IMG/VR virus record: IMGVR_UViG_2579778601_000004
Origin: a virus
Taxonomy: Duplodnaviria > Heunggongvirae > Uroviricota > Caudoviricetes
Strand: one strand, 5' to 3'
DNA length: 39,290 nucleotides
In this document: piece after piece, positions 1 through 31,093 of the stretch
Layout: each line of letters opens with the position of its first letter
Numbering within the stretch: position 1 is the stretch's first letter
Translations under genes and position numbers: made by a program
Notes under the pieces: generated by a model
The model's input: the letters and a program-made list of their open reading frames with translations, nothing else
What the model was told of the DNA's origin: nothing
Database searches by the model: none

Positions 1-1143
1 CTATGCTGTTTTGATATCTACGATAATCCAGTCTTTACCACGATCATCATTGTATCGGTCGGTCATTTTTCTGGATTTATGGCCTAACAACTTTTGCGTA
101 TCCAGACCCTGTTCCCGATATAACCGTTCTGACAGAGATCGCTGCTCATGAAATGTGGGCGCAGTTCCTTGCTCCCATTTTATGCCACATTTTTCCCGGG
201 CCTTTTTAAAAGCCGTTGTCAGAGTATTTGCAGAAACCTGGTCTCCTCTGTTTGCTTGAGAGGTAGTGTGACGGTAATGGACCAGATATTTACTAACAAC
301 AGCATCCCTGCACTGAGATATAACTTCACGAAGGGTAATATTCAGAGCATCGCATTTCAGGTTAAGCGGAATAGCAAGTTTTGAACCGGTTTTTTCCTGA
401 GTAATGTGCAACATGTCGTCCCATATATCAGAGAATTTCAAATTGCAGATATCGCCTAAACGTTGTCCAGTAACAAGAGCAAGTAGCATGCCGCATTTTA
501 AATAGGGCTGCCGTCTGCTTACGCTGTCAAATATTGCCTGCCATTCGGGCAGTGACAATCTTTGGCGGTTTACTCGATTTCGCGGTTGTTTTGTTGCCTG
601 CGCTGGGTTAAATCCTGGCGGAACATGTCCTGCGTGTTGTGCTTCTTTGAAGACGTCGATCAACACCATTCTCACGACTTGCGCCATCCTGTTATGACCT
701 TCAGCCTTTACAGCATCAATTATTTCGGCAATATCAAGTGCGGTAATATCCTTGAGGTGTTGCATTCCACAATGCTCACGGAAAAGACGAATGGGTTTGC
801 CTTTTTGCCGATAGGAGTTGGGTCTTAGTTCATTATGTTGCAGCCTGTCCTCTTGGATAGAAATATATTTATCAAGCCATTCTGTCACCGTAATGTCTGA
901 GCGCCTGCCTTTCATTCTTTCCAGACGCTCATTGACGCTTAATATTTGTCTGGTACGTTGTTCAGCAATAATGGTATTTGCTTCAGTAGCAACTTGTTTT
1001 GCTTCATTCTCATCAGTTCCTAAGCTATGAAAACGACCGGATAGTGGATGTTTGTATTGCCAATATACCTTTCCGGTTCGCTTATCTAATTTGCAATATA
1101 AATTGGGTATAGAGATTTTGTGAGATCGGGGTCTAGCAGCCAT
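1..1143 (-). CDS. int: Phage tyrosine integrase (site-specific recombinase), complete; not the lambda Int sequence
   Basis: 380-aa ORF ending at the TAG at 1-3; sits immediately downstream of and overlapping an excisionase-like gene at the prophage left end. Family call is by position and general recognition. Confidence 0.85.
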   Translation of the reverse strand: MAARPRSHKISIPNLYCKLDKRTGKVYWQYKHPLSGRFHSLGTDENEAKQVATEANTIIAEQRTRQILSVNERLERMKGRRSDITVTEWLDKYISIQEDRLQHNELRPNSYRQKGKPIRLFREHCGMQHLKDITALDIAEIIDAVKAEGHNRMAQVVRMVLIDVFKEAQHAGHVPPGFNPAQATKQPRNRVNRQRLSLPEWQAIFDSVSRRQPYLKCGMLLALVTGQRLGDICNLKFSDIWDDMLHITQEKTGSKLAIPLNLKCDALNITLREVISQCRDAVVSKYLVHYRHTTSQANRGDQVSANTLTTAFKKAREKCGIKWEQGTAPTFHEQRSLSERLYREQGLDTQKLLGHKSRKMTDRYNDDRGKDWIIVDIKTA

Positions 1144-2058: not shown

Positions 2059-2279
2059 CACTTAATCCCCCTTTGTTTGCGGATAAGCTCCAGATCTTGC
2101 TGGCAACTGGCGCAAGTCCGACAACCCTGAACGGCCAGGCGTCTTCGTTCATCTATCGGATCGCCACACTCACAACAATGAGTGGCAGATACAGCCAGGT
2201 AGTTCAGGCGGCGCATTTTTATTGCTGTGTTGCGCTGTAATTCTTCTATTTCTGATGCTGAATCAATGATGTCTGCCAT
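2058..2279 (-). CDS. TraR/DksA-family C4 zinc-finger protein
   Basis: 73 aa with CxxC-(17)-CxxC (CCECGD...CRTCASCQ), typical of phage TraR/DksA-like zinc fingers; ATG at 2279. Confidence 0.65.
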   Translation of the reverse strand: MADIIDSASEIEELQRNTAIKMRRLNYLAVSATHCCECGDPIDERRRLAVQGCRTCASCQQDLELIRKQRGIK

Positions 2280-2377
2280 CTTTCATTAATCCCTGAACTG
2301 TTGGTTAATACGCTTGAGGGTGAATGCGAACAATAAAAAAGGAGCCTGTAGCTCCCTGATAATTTTGCTTTTCATGT

Positions 2378-2659
2378 TCATCGTTCCTTAAAGACGCCGT
2401 TTAACATGCCGATTGCCAGGCTTAAATGAGTCGGTGTGAATCCCTTCAGCGTTACCGTTTCGCGGTGCTTCTTCAGTACGCTACGGCAAATGTCATTGAC
2501 GTTTTTATCCGGAAACTGCTGTCTGACTTTTTTGATTTCAGAATTAGCCTGACGGGCAATGCTGCGAAGGGCATTTTCTTGCTGAGGTGTCACTGAACAA
2601 GCCCCATGTCGGCAAGCATAAGCACACAGAATATGAAGCCCGCTGCCAGAAAAATGCAT
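2378..2659 (-). CDS. Hypothetical protein (93 aa)
   Basis: ORF with ATG at 2659 in the early-left gene series; no family recognised. Confidence 0.35.
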   Translation of the reverse strand: MHFSGSGLHILCAYACRHGACSVTPQQENALRSIARQANSEIKKVRQQFPDKNVNDICRSVLKKHRETVTLKGFTPTHLSLAIGMLNGVFKER

Positions 2660-2669
2660 TCAGTGGTTG

Positions 2670-2861
2670 TCATACCTGGTCTCTCTCATCTGCTTCTGCT
2701 TTCGCCACCATCATTTCCAGCTTTTGTGAAAGGGATGTGGCTAACGTATGAAATTCTTCGTCTGTTTCTGCTGGTATTGGCACAAACCTGACTCCAATTT
2801 GAGCAAGGCTATGTGCCAAATCAATACTCGTTCTTAACTCAACAGGAGATGCTTTGTGCAT
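2670..2861 (-). CDS. Hypothetical small acidic protein (63 aa)
   Basis: ORF in same-strand series upstream of exo; no family recognised. Confidence 0.3.
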   Translation of the reverse strand: MHKASPVELRTSIDLAHSLAQIGVRFVPIPAETDEEFHTLATSLSQKLEMMVAKAEADERDQV

Positions 2862-3022
2862 ACCGCCCCCCGTTTATTATTTATCTCCTCAGCCAGCCGC
2901 TGGGCTTTCAGCGGATTTCGGATAACAGAAAGACCGTGAAATACCCAGCCTCGCTTTGTAACGGAGTAGACGAAAGTGATCGCGCCTACCCGGATATTAT
3001 CGTGAGGATGGGTCATCGCCAT
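2834..3022 (-). CDS. Hypothetical small protein (62 aa)
   Basis: ATG at 3022; its third codon overlaps the exo stop (ATGGCGATGA), suggesting translational coupling; no family recognised. Confidence 0.3.
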
Positions 3023-3693
3023 TGCTCTCCAAATACAAAACCAATTTCAGCCAGTGCTTCGTCCATTTTTTCGATGAACTCCGGCACCATCTCGTCAAAA
3101 CTCGCCATGTACTTTTCATCCCGCTCAACCACGACATAATGCAGGCCTTCACGCTTCATTCGTGGGTCATAGTTGGCAAAGTACCAGGCATCTTTTCGTG
3201 TCACCCACATGCTGTACTGCACCTGGGCCATGTAAGCCGACTTTATGGCCTCGAAACCACCGAGCCGGAACTTCATGAAATCCCGGGAGGTAAACGGGCA
3301 TTTCAGCTCAAGGCCATTGCCGTCACTGCATAAACCATCGGGAGAGCAGGCGGTGCGCATACTTTCGTCGCGATAGATGATCGGGGATTCAGTAACATTC
3401 ACGCCGGAAGTGAATTCAAACAGGGTTCTGGCGTCGTTCTCGTACTGTTTTCCCCACGCCAGCGCCTTAGCATTAACTTCCGGAGCCACACCGGTGCAAA
3501 CCTCAGCCAGCAGGGTGTGGAAGTAGGACATTTTCATGTCAGGCCACTTCTTTCCTGAGCGGGGCTTTGCTATCACGTTGTGAACTTCTGAAGCGGTGAT
3601 GACGCCGAGCCGTAATTTGTGCCATGCATCATCCCCCTGTTCGACAGCTCTCACGTCGATCCCGGTACGCTGCAGGATAATGTCCGGTGTCAT
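3013..3693 (-). CDS. exo: Lambda exonuclease (Red alpha)
   Basis: 226-aa translation recognised as essentially identical to lambda Exo ([52 protein letters not shown]...). Confidence 0.95.
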
Positions 3694-4475
3694 GCTGCCA
3701 CCTTCTGCTCAGTGGCTTTCTGTTTCAGGAATCCAAGAGCTTTCACTGCTTCGGCCTGTGTCAGTTCTGACGATGCGCGAATGTCGCGGCGAAATATCTG
3801 GGAACAGAGCGGCAATAAGTCGTCATCCCATGTTTTGTCCAGGGCAATCAGCAGAGTGTTAATCTCCTGCATGGTTTCATCGTTAACCGGAGTGATGTCG
3901 CGTTCCGGCTGACGTTCCGCAGTGTATGCAGTATTTTCGACAATGCGCTCGGCTTCATCCTTGTCATAGATACCAGCAAATCCGAAGGCCAGACGGGCAC
4001 ACTGAATCATGGCTTTATGCCGTAACATCCGTTTGGGATGCGACTGCCACGGCCCCGTGATTTCTCTGCCTTCGCGAGTTTTGAATGGTTCGCGGCGGCA
4101 TTCATCCATCCATTCGGTAACGCAGATCGGATGATTGCGGTCTTTGCGGTAAATCCGGCACGTACATGATTCATTGTCCTGCTCAAAGTCCATGCCATCA
4201 AACTGCTGGTTTTCATTGATGATGCGGGACCAGCCATCAACGCCCACCACCGGAACGATGCCGTTCTGCTTATCAGGGAAGGCGTAAATTTCTTTCGTCC
4301 ACGGATTAAGGCCGTACTGGTTGGCGACGATCAGCAATGCGATGAACTGCGCATCGCTGGCATCACCTTTAAATGCCGTCTGACGAAGAGTGGTGATCAG
4401 TTCCTGTGGGTCGACAGAATCCATGCCGACACGTTCAGCCAGCTTCCCAGCCAGCGTTGCGAGTGCTGTACTCAT
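3690..4475 (-). CDS. bet: Red beta single-strand annealing protein
   Basis: 261-aa translation recognised as lambda Bet; start overlaps the exo end by 4 bp as in lambda. Confidence 0.95.
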
Positions 4476-4480
4476 CCGTT

Positions 4481-4777
4481 TTATACCTCTGAATCAATAT
4501 CAACATGGTGGTGAGCAATGGTTTCAACCATGTACCGGATGTGTTCTGCCATGCGCTCCTGAAACTCAACATCGTCATCAAACGCACGGGTAATGGCTTT
4601 TTTGCTGGCCCCGCAGCGTTGCAAATGATCGATGCAGAGTGATTCAAACAGGTGCTGTGGAAGACCTTTTTCCATGTCGTCTGCCAGTTCTGCCTCTTTC
4701 TCTTCACGGGCGATCTGCTGGTAGTGACGCGCCCAGCTTTGAGCCTCAAGACGATCCTGAATGTAATAAGCGTTCAT
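4481..4777 (-). CDS. gam: Gam, RecBCD inhibitor (short form)
   Basis: 98-aa translation matches lambda Gam from [26 protein letters not shown] 7 nt upstream of the ATG at 4777. Confidence 0.9.
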
Positions 4778-4852
4778 GGCTGAACTCCTGAAAATGGCTG
4801 TGAAAATATCGCCTGCGAAATGCCGGGCTGATTAGGTAAACAGGAAAGGGGA

Positions 4853-5059
4853 TTAGTGATTCAGGCCGTTGCCGCGTCCGTCGAGAAAAACTTCCACGAG
4901 CAAATCACGGGTATAAGTGCGCTCGATGCCGCGATGCAGATAAAGCCGTCCGCGTAAATTAGCTGATGCAGTCCAGGTACCATCTTTGTGTTTGACCAGC
5001 ATTCCTGGCATGACCGCACCGCGATTAACGGTCTGCGTTCCGTAATGTTGATGAACCAT
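4853..5059 (-). CDS. Hypothetical protein in the kil/cIII/N position (68 aa; ORF could extend to 96 aa with start at 5143)
   Basis: ATG at 5059 has a strong AGGAG 5-6 nt upstream; the longer ORF from 5143 has a weaker GAGG. No arginine-rich N-like motif; no family recognised. Confidence 0.4.
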
Positions 5060-5299
5060 AAAAACTCCTGCCCGTAAGCTGGGCTGCTGAACATATAGAG
5101 ACTTCTGCGCGTATTCAGGCGGTGGATGGCCGCCGGTTGTCATAACTAAGCCGCCTCGTTGAAGCGACTAAGGTATGAAATGTTGAGTTAATTTCAGCTG
5201 GTCACACCGACGTTCACGCGTCCGTTTCACCCCTCGCACTCCCCGAAGCCTGCTGAAATTCAAACTGCGGATCTAAGCGGTCATCGCAACGGTGAATCA

Positions 5300-5420
5300 G
5301 GTAGTTGCCGTATCGTTGTGTTGTTGCGATGAACTTATTTAAAACTATAGTTGTTTTATCGTCAACAACAAAAGTTGTTTTATTGGTTGTTTTAGATATA
5401 ACTGGTTGTATTTAGGATGG
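5300..5420 (-). promoter_or_regulatory. Putative OL/pL-like leftward operator-promoter cluster
   Basis: Clustered GTTGTT/AACAAC half-sites (CAACAACAAAAGTTGTT, TGGTTGTTTTAGATATAACTGGTTGT) sharing the half-site of the cI-cro palindrome; located left of the repressor terminator as OL is in lambda. Confidence 0.45.
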
Positions 5421-5504
5421 ATTTATTTTGTGACTTGAATCGCATAGCGATAACTGAAGCGAGGTTATGGTGGTTTTTTTAACGGTGTGTGTGATGAGGG
5501 GAGG

Positions 5505-5533
5505 GCAAAAGAAAACCCGGCACGGTGACCGGG
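5505..5533 (-). terminator. Putative intrinsic terminator downstream of the repressor gene
   Basis: On the minus strand CCCGG-TCACCGTG-CCGGG hairpin followed by TTTTCTTTT; about 120 bp past the repressor stop. Confidence 0.5.
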
Positions 5534-5654
5534 ATTCTTACGCCGTTAGGTAAAGATATTATTGCGGTGGCTTAATATTACTACCTAGAGCAAAGATAGG
5601 AATTAGTTCTTTACTGAATGAGCACAATGCCCAGTTGATAATTTTTAATTGGTA

Positions 5655-6344
5655 CTACCCATGCTTCCTATATGTCTGCGGCATGCTCCCAATAACCTTA
5701 CCGAAGATGAACACCCGGTTCATCTCGTCTTTCTCGATCGGGTCCCACGGTGAGTAGCTTTTGTTATCAGAGATGACCAGCAGCTTATCCTTCATCATTT
5801 GCAGGCGCTTTACATGGGCTGTGTCGTCGTACAGAAACGCATAGATACCATCACCGTCGAAAGATTTAACTGTGATATCAACGAACAGCAGATCACCTGG
5901 TTCGATCGTTCCTGACATGCTGTCACCACGCACGTTAATGATGCGGATATTTTCCGCCTTCCTACCATCGAACATGTGACGAGCATCGTCAAACGAGTAC
6001 TCAACCGAGCGTAGAACTTCTACAAACTCACGGTTGATGACTCCCGGCCCAGCACTGACTTCTATATCAAGAACGTCAATCTTGAAGTATTTGGAATGGC
6101 TGACAGTTGATTGTATTGGTTGCACTGTACTGTCTGACATATTTCCAACGCCAGAAGATAACCATTCTGCGCGCACACCCAAAGCGTTCGCGATCTCCAC
6201 GATTTTAGTTGTTTGATTAGCTTTCCCTGTTTCGATTTTCTGAATAGCAGCCTGGCTAACCCCGACCAAATCCCCAAGCGCCTTTTGTGTAAGGCCTCGC
6301 GCTAATCTGGCTTCTTTAAGTCTTTCTGAGAGTGTTGTTTTCAT
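5655..6344 (-). CDS. CI-like prophage repressor (N-terminal HTH, C-terminal LexA-like S24 peptidase)
   Basis: HTH (LTQKALGDLVGVSQAAIQKIE), Ala-Gly linker (SAGPG), S24 motifs (VRGDSMSGTIEPGDLLFVD, active-site Ser and KRL Lys). ATG chosen at 6344 (MKTTLSERL); the track's upstream extension to 6410 runs into the operator palindrome. Confidence 0.85.
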   Translation of the reverse strand: MKTTLSERLKEARLARGLTQKALGDLVGVSQAAIQKIETGKANQTTKIVEIANALGVRAEWLSSGVGNMSDSTVQPIQSTVSHSKYFKIDVLDIEVSAGPGVINREFVEVLRSVEYSFDDARHMFDGRKAENIRIINVRGDSMSGTIEPGDLLFVDITVKSFDGDGIYAFLYDDTAHVKRLQMMKDKLLVISDNKSYSPWDPIEKDEMNRVFIFGKVIGSMPQTYRKHG

Positions 6345-6448
6345 AGTCCAAATGTACAACCAAGGTTTTATTCCATCAAACGAAAATGGTTGTTGACTAA
6401 AAACAACCATAGTTTTAATCTTGATTCAAATTAACCACGGAGGTTGTT
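6345..6448. promoter_or_regulatory. OR-like divergent operator/promoter region with a 9-bp-arm palindrome
   Basis: ATGGTTGTT-GACTAAA-AACAACCAT inverted repeat at 6386-6410; TTGACT (-35-like) at 6393-6398; GGAGG RBS before the cro-like ATG at 6449. Confidence 0.55.
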
Positions 6449-6679
6449 ATGAACCCAGCTATCAAAACAGCGATCAATATCGTTGGTTCACAAAAGAAAC
6501 TGGGCGCTGCTTGCGAAGTTTCACAGCAGGCCGTCTATAAGTGGCTTCACAACAAAGCAAAGGTATCCCCTGAACATGTCGGCAGCATTGTTACGGCTAC
6601 TGGTGGAGTAGTGAAGGCATACCAGATTCGCCCGGATCTTCCGAAGTTGTTTCCACACACCGAAAAGAACGCAGCTTAA
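6449..6679 (+). CDS. Cro-like HTH regulator (YdaS/Cro family)
   Basis: 76 aa, divergent from the repressor; HTH-like LGAACEVSQQAVYKWL; GGAGG RBS. Confidence 0.65.
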   Translation: MNPAIKTAINIVGSQKKLGAACEVSQQAVYKWLHNKAKVSPEHVGSIVTATGGVVKAYQIRPDLPKLFPHTEKNAA

Positions 6680-6748
6680 ATTTCCATTTCACGCTCTTTA
6701 ACAATAAGCAATCAACTTAACAGTCAATTCAAACTAAAGGAGTCAATT

Positions 6749-7288
6749 ATGCAACCACTTACATACCAACAGACTAGCGGATTTAGCCCGACTGCGGTGA
6801 TAAATCGTTCTCAAACAAAACAGGTGCCAGGCCACGAAAAAATCCGTGATGCCGTCCGCGCCTGGTCGGCTGTAGATAATCAGGATGTCGTTGCCACACT
6901 CATTGTGAATGAGTATCTGGAGCAGGGCGGCGGCACCATCGATTTCCCTGATGATGTCAGCCGTGCACGCCAGAAGCTGTTCCGCTTCCTCGATAACAAA
7001 TTCGATTCTGAAAAATACCGAAATAACGTGCGTGAACTGACCCCGGCAATTCTGGCGGTACTACCGCTGGAATATCGCGGTTACCTGGTTGAGCAGGATA
7101 GCTTCATGGCTAGGTTGGCTGAAATGGAAAAGGAACTCAGTGAGGCAAAACAGGCTGTCATTCTCAACGCACCACGCCACCAGAAACTGAAGGAAATTAG
7201 TGAAGGTATTGTGTCGATGTTTCGTGTGGACCCAGATCTGGCTGGTCCATTGATGGCGATGGTTACTACCATGCTGGGGGCGATATGA
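6749..7288 (+). CDS. CII-position regulator, YdaT/CP76-like (tentative)
   Basis: 179 aa directly after the cro-like gene; AAGGAG RBS; EYLEQGGG motif that I associate with YdaT-type proteins. Not verified. Confidence 0.4.
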   Translation: MQPLTYQQTSGFSPTAVINRSQTKQVPGHEKIRDAVRAWSAVDNQDVVATLIVNEYLEQGGGTIDFPDDVSRARQKLFRFLDNKFDSEKYRNNVRELTPAILAVLPLEYRGYLVEQDSFMARLAEMEKELSEAKQAVILNAPRHQKLKEISEGIVSMFRVDPDLAGPLMAMVTTMLGAI

Positions 7289-7374
7289 CAGGTTCAGAAA
7301 TGGCGAAAGCCGGTCTGCTGGAACAGAACCGACTTTCAGGTGCAAATCGTAACACACTCATTGCGGGAGGAATT

Positions 7375-8304
7375 ATGGCAAACACTGCTGAGATATTCAA
7401 TTTTCCAGTGCCGGATGCGGCACAAAAGGAGCCGCGCGTGGCAGATCTCGATGATGGTTATACGCGCATTGCAAATGAGTTGCTGGAAGCTGTGATGCTG
7501 GCCGGATTAACACAGCACCAGCTTCTGGTCTTTCTGGCTGTCATGCGCAAAACATATGGCTTTAATAAAAAACTGGATTGGGTTAGCAACGAGCAACTTT
7601 CCGAATTAACCGGGATATTGCCGCACAAGTGTTCTGCTGCAAAAAGTGTTCTGGTAAAGCGTGGGATTTTTATTCAGAGCGGGCGGAATACCGGCATTAA
7701 TAATGTGGTCAGTGAATGGTCAACATTACCCGAATCAGGTAAGAAAAATAAAGTTTACCTGAAAGAGGTAAATTTACCTGAATCAGGTAAAAAAAGTTTA
7801 CCCAAATCAGGTAAAGGCGTTTACCCGAATCAGGTAAACACAAAAGACAAACTAACAAAAGACAATATAAAACCTTTTTCGTCCGAGAATTCTGGCGAAT
7901 CCTCTGACCAACCAGAAAACGATCTTCCTGTGGTGAAACCGGATGCTGCAATTCAGAGCGGCAGCAAGTGGGGGACAGCAGAAGACCTGACCGCCGCAGA
8001 GTGGATGTTTGACATGGTGAAGACCATCGCGCCATCAGCCAGAAAACCGAATTTTGCAGGGTGGGCTAACGATATCCGCCTGATGCGTGAACGTGACGGA
8101 CGTAACCACCGCGACATGTGCGTGCTGTTCCGCTGGGCATGCCAGGACAACTTCTGGTCCGGTAACGTGCTAAGTCCGGCCAAACTCCGCGACAAGTGGA
8201 CCCAACTCGAAATCAACCGTAACAAGCAACAGGCAGGCGTGACAGCTAGCAAACCAAAACTCGACCTGACAAACACAGACTGGATTTACGGGGTGGATCT
8301 ATGA
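7375..8304 (+). CDS. O: Replication initiator O (lambda O-like)
   Basis: Start chosen at ATG 7375 after GGGAGG (MANTAEIFNFPV...ADLDDGYTRIANELLEA, like lambda O MTNTAKILNF...ADLDDGY); contains the iteron array; stop overlaps the P start. Confidence 0.85.
   Translation: MANTAEIFNFPVPDAAQKEPRVADLDDGYTRIANELLEAVMLAGLTQHQLLVFLAVMRKTYGFNKKLDWVSNEQLSELTGILPHKCSAAKSVLVKRGIFIQSGRNTGINNVVSEWSTLPESGKKNKVYLKEVNLPESGKKSLPKSGKGVYPNQVNTKDKLTKDNIKPFSSENSGESSDQPENDLPVVKPDAAIQSGSKWGTAEDLTAAEWMFDMVKTIAPSARKPNFAGWANDIRLMRERDGRNHRDMCVLFRWACQDNFWSGNVLSPAKLRDKWTQLEINRNKQQAGVTASKPKLDLTNTDWIYGVDL
7726..7838. repeat. ori-lambda-type iteron array inside O, followed by an AT-rich tract
   Basis: Five copies of about 19 bp TTTACC(C/T)GAATCAGGTAAA, each with internal dyad TACC...GGTA, then an A-rich stretch at 7839-7875. 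Confidence 0.8.
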
Positions 8305-18852: not shown

Positions 18853-18989
18853 TGTTTGAGTCTTATATGGCAGAACGTCTTCGCCGCCGCTGGGTGCGCC
18901 TGCGCTTATATCGTTTTCCTAGTTCTGTTTTGACCGATTACCGGATACTGAAGAATTACGCCAAAACACTGAAAGGAGCTGCCGCATGA
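18849..18989 (+). CDS. ylcG: YlcG-like small protein (46 aa)
   Basis: Hand translation [46 protein letters not shown]; overlaps the rusA stop and the next gene's start, as in DLP12. Confidence 0.55.
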
Positions 18990-19675
18990 ATACCCAATAT
19001 TTACAGTATGTCCGCGAGCAACTCATTGTGGCTACCGCTGATTTGAGCGGAGCAACGAAAGGACAGCTTGAAGCCTGGCTGGAGCATGCACAATTTGATA
19101 CTGGTACATACAAACGAAAGAAGCCGCGCATTCTGGATGAGGTAACTGGCAGGATGATTACGCTGGATAATCCGCCGATTTCCGGTAAGCAGTTGTACGC
19201 AAAAGGTTCATCCATTGCACTGGTCAGCCAGGTTGAGTTCTCAACCTCGTCATGGCGCCGCGCGGTTCTGTCTCTCGAAGAACATCAGAAAGCGTGGTTG
19301 CTGTGGAGTTACAGCGAAAGTGTTCGCTGGGAACATCAGGTCACCATAACGCAGTGGGCATGGAGCGAGTTTAAGACTCTGTTGGGTACCAGGAAAATTG
19401 CAGGTAAAACACTGGAACGTTTGAAGAAGTTGATCTGGCTGGCGGCACAGGATGTGAAGAACGAGCTGGCAGGGCGTAAGACCTATGAATACCAGGAGCT
19501 GGCATCACTGGTGGGAGTGACATCAAAAAACTGGTCTGAGACATTTACTGAACGCTGGGTTGCAATGAAGCACATTTTTCTACAGCTTGATAGCCAAGCT
19601 TTATTGCTTTTAACGAAAACACGTTCAAAACAAAAGACCATATTTTCACAGCAAGATATTGCAAAACTGGATTAA
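18986..19675 (+). CDS. Putative late-gene antiterminator (Q-like), 229 aa
   Basis: Sits between rusA/ylcG and the pR'-terminator-holin region, the canonical Q slot; sequence is not lambda Q, so the call rests on position and a vague family resemblance. Confidence 0.55.
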   Translation: MNTQYLQYVREQLIVATADLSGATKGQLEAWLEHAQFDTGTYKRKKPRILDEVTGRMITLDNPPISGKQLYAKGSSIALVSQVEFSTSSWRRAVLSLEEHQKAWLLWSYSESVRWEHQVTITQWAWSEFKTLLGTRKIAGKTLERLKKLIWLAAQDVKNELAGRKTYEYQELASLVGVTSKNWSETFTERWVAMKHIFLQLDSQALLLLTKTRSKQKTIFSQQDIAKLD

Positions 19676-19705
19676 AAATCATATATTTTATGTAAATCTG
19701 ATATT

Positions 19706-19734
19706 TTGCCAATGTTGTACGCACTGGCAGTAAT
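19706..19734 (+). promoter_or_regulatory. Candidate late promoter pR' (-35 TTGCCA, 17-bp spacer, -10 AGTAAT)
   Basis: Hexamers with 17-bp spacing immediately downstream of the Q-like gene; structured leader follows. Confidence 0.4.
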
Positions 19735-19742
19735 CCAAATTC

Positions 19743-19775
19743 AAGCCCGAGGTTTAAAGCCTTGGGCTTTTCTGT
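19743..19775 (+). terminator. Hairpin plus T-tract in the late leader (candidate pause or terminator)
   Basis: AAGCCCGAGG-TTTAAAG-CCTTGGGCTT followed by TTCTGTTTCTG. Confidence 0.4.
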
Positions 19776-30318: not shown

Positions 30319-30717
30319 ATGACGAAAGATGAACTGATTGCCCGTCTCCGCTCGCTGGGTGAACAACTGAACCGTGATGTCAGCCTGACGGGGACGAAAG
30401 AAGAACTGGCGCTCCGTGTGGCAGAGCTGGAAGAGGAGCTTGATGACACGGATGAAACTGCCGGTCAGGACACCCCTCTCAGCCGGGAAAATGTGCTGAC
30501 CGGACATGAAAATGAGGTGGGATCAGCGCAGCCGGATACCGTGATTCTGGATACGTCTGAACTGGTCACGGTCGTGGCACTGGTGACGCTGCATACTGAT
30601 GCACTTCACGCCACGCGGGATGAACCTGTGGCATTTGTGCTTCCGGGAACGGCGTTCCGTGTCTCTGCCGGTGTGGCAGCCGAAATGACAGAACGTGGCC
30701 TGGCCAGAATGCAATAA
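30319..30717 (+). CDS. FI: DNA packaging protein FI
   Basis: MTKDELIARLRSLGEQLNRDVSLTGTKEELALRVAEL... recognised as lambda gpFI; 132 aa. Confidence 0.9.
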   Translation: MTKDELIARLRSLGEQLNRDVSLTGTKEELALRVAELEEELDDTDETAGQDTPLSRENVLTGHENEVGSAQPDTVILDTSELVTVVALVTLHTDALHATRDEPVAFVLPGTAFRVSAGVAAEMTERGLARMQ

Positions 30718-30728
30718 CGGGAGGCGCT

Positions 30729-31082
30729 GTGGCTGATTTCGATAACCTGTTCGATGCTGCCATTGTCCGCGCCGATGAAACGATACGCGGGTACATGGGA
30801 ACGTCAGCCACCATGACATCCGGTGAGCAGTCCGGCGCAGTAATACGTGGTGTTTTTGATGACCCTGAAAATATCAGCTATGCCGGACAGGGCGTGCGCG
30901 TTGAAGGCTCCAGCCCGTCCCTGTTTGTCCGGACTGATGATGTGCGGCAGCTGCGGCGCGGCGACACGCTGACCATCGGTGAGGAAAACTTCTGGATAGA
31001 CCGGATTTCGACGGATGATGGCGGAAGCTGTCATCTCTGGCTTGGGCGTGGCGTGCCGCCTGCCGTTAACCGTCGTCGCTGA
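30729..31082 (+). CDS. FII: Head completion protein FII
   Basis: GTG start; MADFDNLFDAAI.RADETIRGYMGTSAT... recognised as lambda gpFII. Confidence 0.9.
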   Translation: MADFDNLFDAAIVRADETIRGYMGTSATMTSGEQSGAVIRGVFDDPENISYAGQGVRVEGSSPSLFVRTDDVRQLRRGDTLTIGEENFWIDRISTDDGGSCHLWLGRGVPPAVNRRR

Positions 31083-31093
31083 AGGGGGGATGT

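Follow-up and report, generated by a model that had tools for sequence, protein, structure and literature searches.

Textbook accounts of processive antitermination are built on lambda N and HK022 put, and in lambda the transcription from pL of the region with xis and int depends on N. The put RNA acts in cis on RNA polymerase via the zinc-binding domain of the beta' subunit, and protein factors are not needed (PMC9378689). Lambdoid phages with neither N nor put have usually been passed off with the remark that they may use put (e.g., PMC12315714). Here, we analyzed the early control region of a lambda-like prophage of Escherichia coli contained in a 39,290-nucleotide (nt) stretch of viral DNA (IMG/VR record IMGVR_UViG_2579778601_000004; hereafter the window, at its full length), with the interval between the first leftward gene, kil, and the repressor gene, cI, as the subject. 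This interval is the junction of the immunity module with the leftward early operon in an N-less lambda-like prophage. A first-pass annotation had proposed that early antitermination here works differently from lambda, possibly through RNA as in HK022, or is absent. Our results do not sustain the put version of that proposal, and the option of absence is better supported for the leftward operon because the terminator that lies upstream of a conserved RNA motif in N-type and put-type relatives is missing along with N and put. We put at about an even chance the reading in which the leftward operon has no dedicated early antiterminator, host Nus factors possibly act at a boxA on the right, and Q controls the late genes.

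The leader between pL and kil is 271 nt long and untranslated, and a minus-strand scan identified no terminator-like sites between 5330 and kil. It is a composite of a 5' stem-loop (SL1), a lineage-specific segment of about 115 nt that includes a second structured element (SL2), and a 73-nt two-hairpin motif. In the direction of leftward transcription, the features are as follows.

Positions 5337-5391, minus strand: OL operators, including the overlapping pL, with GTTGTT/AACAAC half-sites at 5350-5391.
Positions 5365-5360 and 5342-5337, minus strand: pL, with the -35 element TTGACG, a 17-nt spacer, and the -10 element TTAAAT.
Positions 5281-5332, minus strand: SL1, the 5'-terminal stem-loop of the pL transcript, with arms UCAUCGCAAC and GUUGCGAUGA and a 32-nt C-rich loop.
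Positions 5190-5260, minus strand: SL2, a G-rich, structured, lineage-specific segment with a 9-base-pair (bp) outer stem (AAUUUCAGC and GCUGAAAUU).
Positions 5109-5181, minus strand: two-hairpin RNA motif of 73 nt, outside Rfam, with hairpin A at 5140-5178 and hairpin B at 5118-5134.
Positions 5060-5108, minus strand: 5' untranslated region of kil, highly conserved and unstructured (z score of the fold +0.5), with the Shine-Dalgarno sequence AGGAG at 5069-5065.
Positions 4853-5059, minus strand: kil, the first leftward gene, of the FtsZ inhibitor family (phrog_294, 1e-38; 'phage encoded cell division inhibitor' in PGAP).

Alignment to the annotated pL of phi80 places the predicted pL start site at A5330. 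The homology boundary between immunity types coincides with this predicted start, where phages with other operators and repressors match the window again exactly, and on the right side homology between immunity types picks up at the cII ATG. The module whose transcribed part is the leader does not depend on immunity type. Its first ~25 nt (CATCGCAACAACAC...) are similar to the pL transcript starts of phi80, phiEt88, and S9-5. The operator-like repeats reported by the first-pass annotation are real: the OL half-sites recur at OR (6375-6418) as part of inverted repeats common to OR/pR.

In place of the 2.4 kb that separate pL from gam in lambda (nutL, N, sieB, ral, ea10, cIII, kil), the window has 471 bp. 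A 2.8-kb block, positions 2068-4859, has 96.6% identity to lambda 30402-33193 (orf61 to gam), and this homology ends inside gam, which indicates that the nutL-to-kil segment of lambda was swapped for the 471-bp segment.

Screening for N and nut supported the earlier claims that an N-like antiterminator ORF (open reading frame) is missing downstream of the leftward operators and that the first leftward ORF, assigned to Kil by its phrog_294 match, is not N-like. Among ORFs of at least 20 amino acids (aa) in 5060-5654 there was no PHROG match to the N/Nun family; the ORFs tested there gave no such match in Pfam, nor did the annotated pL genes that were scanned in PHROG or Pfam. Lambda N, used as a positive control, matched phrog_271 at 9e-24. 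In a collection of 5.8 billion proteins searched with the translated leader, only 38 matched, all near-identical E. coli products and none of them N. The possibility that the leader is a decayed N gene was rejected; N-like relatives of its translation were not found, and local alignment to the pL regions of phi80, HK639, CobraSix, phiEt88, UPF_BP1, HK225, HK022, and lambda recovered a shared 5' start only. The alignment of the leader 5' start to pL regions was best against S9-5.

The left leader also yielded no boxA on either strand at up to one mismatch from the lambda 8-mer or up to three mismatches from the rRNA operon (rrn) and phi80 13-mers. The loops of its hairpins (CCGCA, GGGAGUG, GUGACCA, CAACG, and CCAUCCA) include none that is boxB-like and no GNRA-like pentaloop, and the claimed absence of boxA and boxB from the leader within 5144-5654 was confirmed. 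The sole candidate for a nut-like motif common to the left and right transcripts was a 13-mer (5210-5222 and 8082-8094), which is within chance expectation. Rfam searches of the window at the gathering score, and of 4700-7400 at E values up to 10, gave chance-level matches only. No promoters within the leader or the two-hairpin motif were identified by eye, and a promoter scan of 4700-7400 identified none in the leader besides one overlapping the operators (5324-5351, plus strand). A candidate ops/RfaH element at GGCGGCTTAG agreed by eye with only 7 of 12 positions of the consensus and was dropped.

The first-pass annotation was mistaken in stating that neither strand carries an arginine-rich small ORF.

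Positions 5168-5263, minus strand: arginine-rich mini-ORF of 31 codons with a TTG start, translation MNFSRLRGVRGVKRTRERRCDQLKLTQHFIP, and the core ...RLRGVRGVKRTRERR....

An alternative start at GTG 5230 (MKRTRERRCDQLK...) lies 8 nt downstream of GGAG and is ATG in 10 of 93 variants. It is conceivable, but very unlikely in our judgment, that the mini-ORF is translated from TTG 5263 or GTG 5230 into a short N-like peptide that binds a leader hairpin, such as GACG-CGUGAA-CGUC at 5222-5209, and serves antitermination or autoregulation. The sequence KRTRERRCDQ resembles the arginine-rich motif of lambda N, RRRERRAEK. The commonest polymorphisms (5246, 5225, 5180, and 5177) are synonymous in the mini-ORF frame, and diversity is 0.093 at third positions versus 0.030 at first and second positions, over 14 codons only. 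However, the stop at 5170 is TAG in 29 of 93 variants and CAG in the other 64, in which the frame continues into kil. The frame is shifted by a 5-nt TCAAC insertion in four variants and by an additional G in one, and deletion of 1 nt at 5138 or a T gained at 5065 also alters the product, which depending on variant and start comprises ~20 to 50 aa or a Kil fusion of ~125-136 aa. The arginine codons overlap a CG-rich palindrome and may be a by-product of an RNA hairpin. Neither boxA nor boxB accompanies the ORF, the pR side has no matching site, and no family match was obtained in PHROG or Pfam. The locus is present in ~40% of complete E. coli genomes, yet only three products among ~15 billion proteins cover the arginine-rich part. 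Moreover, 20-31 residues are too few for the NusA- and polymerase-binding parts of N. The evidence against the mini-ORF outweighs the evidence for it, and it is probably not a gene as judged from these sequence features. Of the finding that the first-pass annotation said would overturn its view, an arginine-rich ORF with adjacent boxA and boxB, the ORF thus exists but the boxes do not, and the stop and frame of the ORF are not conserved.

A longer Kil, starting at ATG 5143 as annotated in PhiR47_2 or from the arginine-rich ORF, was rejected because HK225 has in-frame stops ahead of the kil ATG, because the deletion at 5138 (three E. coli variants) and the extra T at 5065 (one variant) interrupt this stretch, and because a strong AGGAG stands before 5059. 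The likely start of Kil is the ATG at 5059, in agreement with PGAP.

The comparison with HK022 put suggested in the first-pass annotation was carried out with a purpose-built covariance model. Nine sequences were aligned from a set comprising putL and putR of HK022, HK639, phiEt88, UPF_BP1, CobraSix, S9-5, and PdC23, and the alignment shows compensatory changes in seven pairs. The model assigned 64-99 bits to every put in the loci scanned (eight sites in five phages, HK022, HK639, phiEt88, UPF_BP1, and CobraSix, seven of the sites being its own training sequences), whereas with filters off it gave at most 4.9 bits across 4800-7400, and nowhere in the whole window did its score exceed 10.7 bits. 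The put consensus of two stem-loops, GAACGGC...GUCGG...GGCGGG.UCAGGAUGA.CGGCAAU, does not occur in the window. No second copy of any leader element was found on the pR side; HK639 has a left put copy only, so that this lack is not decisive alone. We therefore reject an HK022-type put identity for the leader on the basis of the covariance model.

What the relatives of this locus have and the window does not is best seen from the two-hairpin motif. Copies were identified in HK225, phi80, HK639, CobraSix, S9-5, and ENT1-type Enterobacter phages, and also in prophages of Citrobacter, Enterobacter, Scandinavium, Huaxiibacter, and Pseudescherichia (comparison loci L148 2502-2573, L011 2480-2552, L005 3643-3714, L008 3367-3438, L009 2499-2568, and L140-L147). 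A covariance model of the motif (R2) was built from 11 variants, the window sequence being one of them. In the motif folding 97.8% of cells are paired and seven hairpin A pairs show compensatory changes, a result that none of 500 shuffles reached and that slid registers of the pairing do not come close to. The model scored 94 bits at 5109-5181 and 78 bits in phi80, with one copy per genome, and detected no copies on the pR side and none in lambda. Hairpin A is strongly folded (predicted free energy, dG, -16; z -4.2), and the structure is assigned to the leftward RNA because the G-U pairs of hairpin A fit only that strand's transcript. By these comparisons, the motif is an uncatalogued structured RNA common to N-type, put-type, and N-less phages and to several enterobacterial genera. 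A weak match to the motif model was also observed in the leftward operon of HK022 beside IS903 (21.5 bits, E 0.006; L004 4438-4492, minus strand).

Hairpin A sequesters a conserved AUG. This AUG opens a short ORF whose product begins MTTGGHPPP, a poly-proline motif (window 5143-5060), in 10 of the 11 variants; its length ranges from 11 to 32 codons or extends into kil, and the frame is lost in CobraSix and in 3 of 93 E. coli variants. The ORF could be a stalling leader peptide or a mere by-product of hairpin B.

Outside this phage group, the motif follows a terminator consisting of a GC hairpin and a U-run in 13 loci (phi80 tL1A, HK225, HK639, CobraSix, S9-5, and eight genome contigs), either directly or, in HK639, after 6 nt. 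The phi80 copy comes just after gene N, with the annotated rho-independent tL1A on one side of it and the rho-dependent tL1B on the other, and in HK639 hairpin B together with a U-run 7 nt downstream is annotated as a terminator. Ahead of the motif the window reads AACTCAACATTT, where the terminator hairpin and most of the U-run are gone. The order in the relatives is pL, nutL or put, one or more genes, tL1A, the motif, and later kil, while the order in the window is pL, SL1, SL2, the motif, and kil.

The most economical reading of these observations is a joint loss of the antiterminator and of the terminators on which it acted. RNA polymerase from pL would then reach kil and the recombination genes (kil-gam-bet-exo) unaided, with SL1 probably stabilizing the 5' end of the mRNA and the conserved downstream leader probably controlling kil expression after transcription. 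PhiR34_1, among the nearest sequenced phages, is 99.7% identical across window positions 4700-7400 and is a viable phage whose full genome has no N gene; a strong plus-strand intrinsic terminator between its P and Q genes was not found.

The candidate site of host factor action is on the right, outside the interval for which the first-pass annotation reported no boxA or boxB; that annotation overlooked an exact rrn boxA there.

Positions 6692-6705, plus strand: rrn-type boxA, CGCTCTTTAACAAT, in the 69-nt cro-cII spacer.

The exact rrn boxA GCTCTTTAACAA at 6693-6704 (plus strand) lies 13 nt past the cro stop, at the position of nutR in lambda, and is the sole match in the 39-kb window; the match to the E. 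coli rrn sequence extends over 13 nt. The sequence GCTCTTTAACA at 6693-6703, 45 nt before the cII ATG, perfectly fits GYTCTTTAANA, the consensus for finding Nus-factor targets (Baniulyte et al., PMC5725501). No boxB was found in the cro-cII spacer, which is G-poor and unstructured, with two 4-bp AU-rich hairpins only and no stem of five or more pairs. From its sequence and position, both rrn-type protection from Rho by host Nus factors and suhB-type repression of the gene 45 nt downstream are plausible roles for this boxA. In the reading of joint loss, it would probably recruit host NusB/NusE-based complexes without a phage protein, these complexes would shield the untranslated cro-cII gap and the pR operon from Rho, and the late genes would run under Q. 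An 'M3-like RNA' is annotated just after the YdaT-type cII of HK639 (37910-37969; L139 1711-1770).

The boxA also bears on a further explanation, in which a second prophage resident in the cell provides N-type antitermination in trans, through the boxA downstream of cro. E. coli genomes usually hold several lambdoid prophages (a median of six places per genome match the window), and the boxA is where nutR would be. However, a boxB-type hairpin is found neither beside this boxA nor in the left leader, other immunity types of the phage group have no boxA, and near-identical phages without an N gene of their own are recorded on E. coli K-12 MG1655 or E. coli C hosts. We regard this explanation as extremely improbable, and the caveat raised earlier that N might come from outside the window is similarly made unlikely by PhiR34_1, which is viable with no N in its complete genome.

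Several observations weigh against the joint loss of antiterminator and terminators. One intrinsic terminator is retained in the leftward operon.

Positions 2339-2357, minus strand: intrinsic terminator upstream of a TraR-like gene, xis, and int, identified by the terminator scan.

Its hairpin and first U-run (2357-2339) are identical to lambda 30691-30673, with one base different in the distal tail; the hairpin is also present in PhiR34_1 (dG -10.2, six-U run). Since this lambda-type terminator remains, some mechanism of read-through may still be needed. A strong terminator also follows the cargo gene between pR and Q in this prophage (13529-13549, plus strand), and Rho-dependent terminators are not predictable from sequence here. 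The boxA is limited to one immunity type (phage 4A7, for example, has a 30-nt cro-cII gap without boxA), so that Nus-based protection would not be general to the group. The lineage-specific part of the leader sits exactly at the position of put or nutL, flanked by sequence homologous to the relatives that have these elements. Among 94 distinct variants, diversity is 0.034 in the leader core and 0.015 in its last 84 nt (5060-5143), compared with 0.082 for the third codon positions of kil and 0.084 for the spacer between kil and gam; that the leader is less diverse than these neutral proxies implies a function of some kind.

Such a function might be that of a new cis-acting processive antiterminator RNA, a put analogue of unrelated sequence formed by SL1 and the SL2 segment (~5190-5330), an explanation that we consider unlikely. 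This RNA would modify polymerase and so carry it past the 2357-2339 terminator, the strong one still downstream, and past Rho-dependent sites toward xis and int. The segment stands immediately after pL, like putL and nutL, between a 5' start and a 3' motif that are homologous to those of put- and N-type relatives, and HK639 shows that an antiterminator RNA can be confined to the left operon. At least four immunity types keep the leader, which was found in 2222 of 5426 complete E. coli genomes and whose diversity is ~2.4-fold under that of the neutral proxies. Both elements fold better than shuffled sequences. SL1, which is the CGCAAC...GTTGCG stem-loop that the first-pass annotation had correctly placed in the leader, begins at about +1 and has a 10-bp stem (dG -13.1, z -3.4) whose stability was equaled in none of 200 shuffles; SL2 (dG -26.4, z -2.2) was equaled in 6 of 200. 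Against this, the stability of the leader taken as a whole is unremarkable (z -1.6), and the alifold consensus of the inner part of SL2, in the middle of the leader, is unstable across variants. The SL1 stem is kept via G-U pairs in two immunity types, but its 5' arm is replaced in a third. The put covariance model sees no similarity, homologs of the ~115-nt SL2 segment were not found outside this phage group, and covariation in SL1 and SL2 is not assessable because divergent homologs are lacking, all 93 distinct variants being ~95% identical or more. Finally, the terminator nearest to pL in the relatives is absent here, and with it the most obvious need for such an RNA.

Alternatively, the leader might mainly serve post-transcriptional control of the toxic kil and of host physiology, with antitermination uninvolved, which we view as rather unlikely. 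SL1 would stabilize the mRNA, the CA-rich loop would pair with the small RNA GcvB as target or sponge, and the two-hairpin motif would be a site of processing (e.g., by RNase III) or of translational control.

Positions 5315-5326, minus strand: CAACAACACAAC in SL1, a perfect 12-mer complement to nt 72-83 of the R1 seed region of GcvB (from K-12).

This complement lies at the transcript 5' end. Hairpin A is strongly covarying, with G-U pairs that fit the leftward RNA only and a conserved AUG that it sequesters, and conservation within the leader is highest in the 84 nt ahead of kil, which are nevertheless unstructured. However, GcvB-complementary 12-mers occur three times in the window and at least once in 97 of 200 shuffles, the duplex energies are not exceptional (the scan was not significant), and the 12-mer is partly inside the SL1 stem. 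Because pL is repressed in lysogens, a sponge would be active only after induction, and in other phages the two-hairpin motif precedes genes other than kil. Pairing of GcvB with the SL1 12-mer is a lead only, resting on complementarity. The prophage small RNA AgvB, which sponges GcvB through a CACAACA motif, sits 3' of pR' at a late-region cargo site (PMC4104026). An AgvB identity of SL1 was rejected, since AgvB is a late-region RNA with an Rfam family of its own (RF02702), which has no match in the window.

On the other side of the operators, the interval contains the end of the cI transcript.

Positions 5506-5533, minus strand: intrinsic terminator of the cI (pRM) transcript from the terminator scan, CCCGGTCACCGTGCCGGG then TTTTCTTTT, with its hairpin at 5533-5516.
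Positions 5606-5614: cargo (moron) insertion point just 3' of cI and before the cI terminator, empty in the window.

The terminator noted earlier in this interval is real; it ends the cI transcript, its hairpin has a dG of -10.1 kcal/mol, and it is kept across immunity types. In relatives the cargo slot holds GevA/GevT, HipA/HipD, a SIR2-family protein, or a BamE-like lipoprotein, and homology breaks at ~5610-5613 (slot contents in the comparison loci: L002 3836-5252, L003 2841-4269, L013 549-2150, and L015 1914-2294). This hotspot 3' of cI corresponds to the position of rexAB in lambda. The ~100 nt between the cI terminator and OL (5417-5510) are nearly invariant across immunity types. On the plus strand this stretch has a weak hairpin followed by T7 (5474-5480), downstream of the promoter-like site at 5324-5351.

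The remainder of the window is organized as in a lambda-like prophage, with the following features.

Positions 1-1143, minus strand: int, followed on the map by xis and small genes of the lambda b region.
Positions 3013-3693, minus strand: exo.
Positions 3690-4475, minus strand: bet.
Positions 4481-4777, minus strand: gam.
Positions 5060-5654: unannotated gap between kil and cI.
Positions 5655-6344, minus strand: cI-type repressor (Pfam Peptidase_S24 1e-18, HTH_3 5e-13; PGAP annotation).
Positions 6449-6679, plus strand: YdaS-type cro.
Positions 6749-7288: YdaT-type 'cII', followed by O and P.
Positions 18986-19675: Q gene, in a pR'/tR' arrangement; Q and pR'/tR' together span 18986-19770.

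The right arm after P comprises cargo (an inverse autotransporter and an IS66-split hydrolase), nin genes, Q, lysis genes, and lambda-type virion genes. The cargo between P and the nin region includes a 1421-aa inverse-autotransporter (intimin/invasin-like) gene with three near-identical repeats of ~119 aa each (9252-13549, together with the terminator that follows it). At 13554-17137 an alpha/beta-hydrolase gene is interrupted by the IS66-family element ISEc23 (tnpA, tnpB, transposase); it is on the opposite strand within the early right operon.

The window matches many E. coli chromosomes at ~100% identity. Besides PhiR34_1, its nearest sequenced phages are Turner, PhiR5_1, PhiR47_2, and the Bievrevirus group (4A7, Lambda_4C10), and the genomes with the pL leader include O157:H7, O104:H4, and ST131 strains. 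For a viable, easily grown, and very common phage group, the guess that put may be used can now be rejected. If antiterminator and terminators were indeed lost together, this group would show a lambda-type early operon that works without an early antiterminator and with host Nus factors at a bare boxA. If instead the leader were an antiterminator RNA, it would be a third kind of lambdoid early antitermination device after N/nut and put, present in ~40% of complete E. coli genomes.

Among known systems, the put phages (HK022, HK639, HK75, phiEt88, CobraSix, UPF_BP1, and S9-5) resemble the window in having an N-less lambdoid early region with a structured RNA right after pL. Some of them also have the first ~25 nt of the transcript and the downstream two-hairpin motif in common with it, and UPF_BP1 has a similar pL -10/operator sequence. 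They differ in that putL is followed by a gene and a terminator that are missing in the window, which also has no second copy after cro. In phi80 (pL-nutL-N-tL1A-tL1B) the pL transcript start and the two-hairpin motif are homologous to those of the window and kil lies downstream in both; unlike the window, phi80 has nutL (boxA and a core hairpin), an N of 98 aa, and, immediately ahead of the motif, tL1A. With AgvB the leader has only a CA-rich GcvB-target motif in common.

The right boxA is comparable to the host rrn-type boxA of rRNA operons, the suhB leader, and CRISPR arrays: core and consensus are matched exactly, the surrounding stretch of a long operon is G-poor, unstructured, and untranslated, and a phage-encoded partner is not evident in the window. 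It differs from them in that no boxB- or boxC-like flanks were recognized in the window. As in suhB, where boxA represses translation, its location 45 nt before the start of the YdaT-type cII makes translational repression an equally possible outcome.

With lambda, the window has in common the layout int-xis...exo-bet-gam-kil <- pL/OL, cI, OR/pR -> cro-cII-O-P...Q, an exo-bet-gam block that together with one downstream intrinsic terminator is 96.6% identical, and a boxA just after cro, at the nutR site. It differs from the N/nut system in lacking N, nutL, and boxB at either site, and its boxA is the rrn consensus GCTCTTTAACAAT while that of lambda is CGCTCTTA. The closest parallel to the loss of antiterminator and terminators together is the nin5-type N-independence of lambda, in which the need for N goes when its target terminators go. 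The arrangement in the window differs from nin5 in that it lies in the leftward operon, where one intrinsic terminator is left before xis and int, and in that it is natural and widespread.

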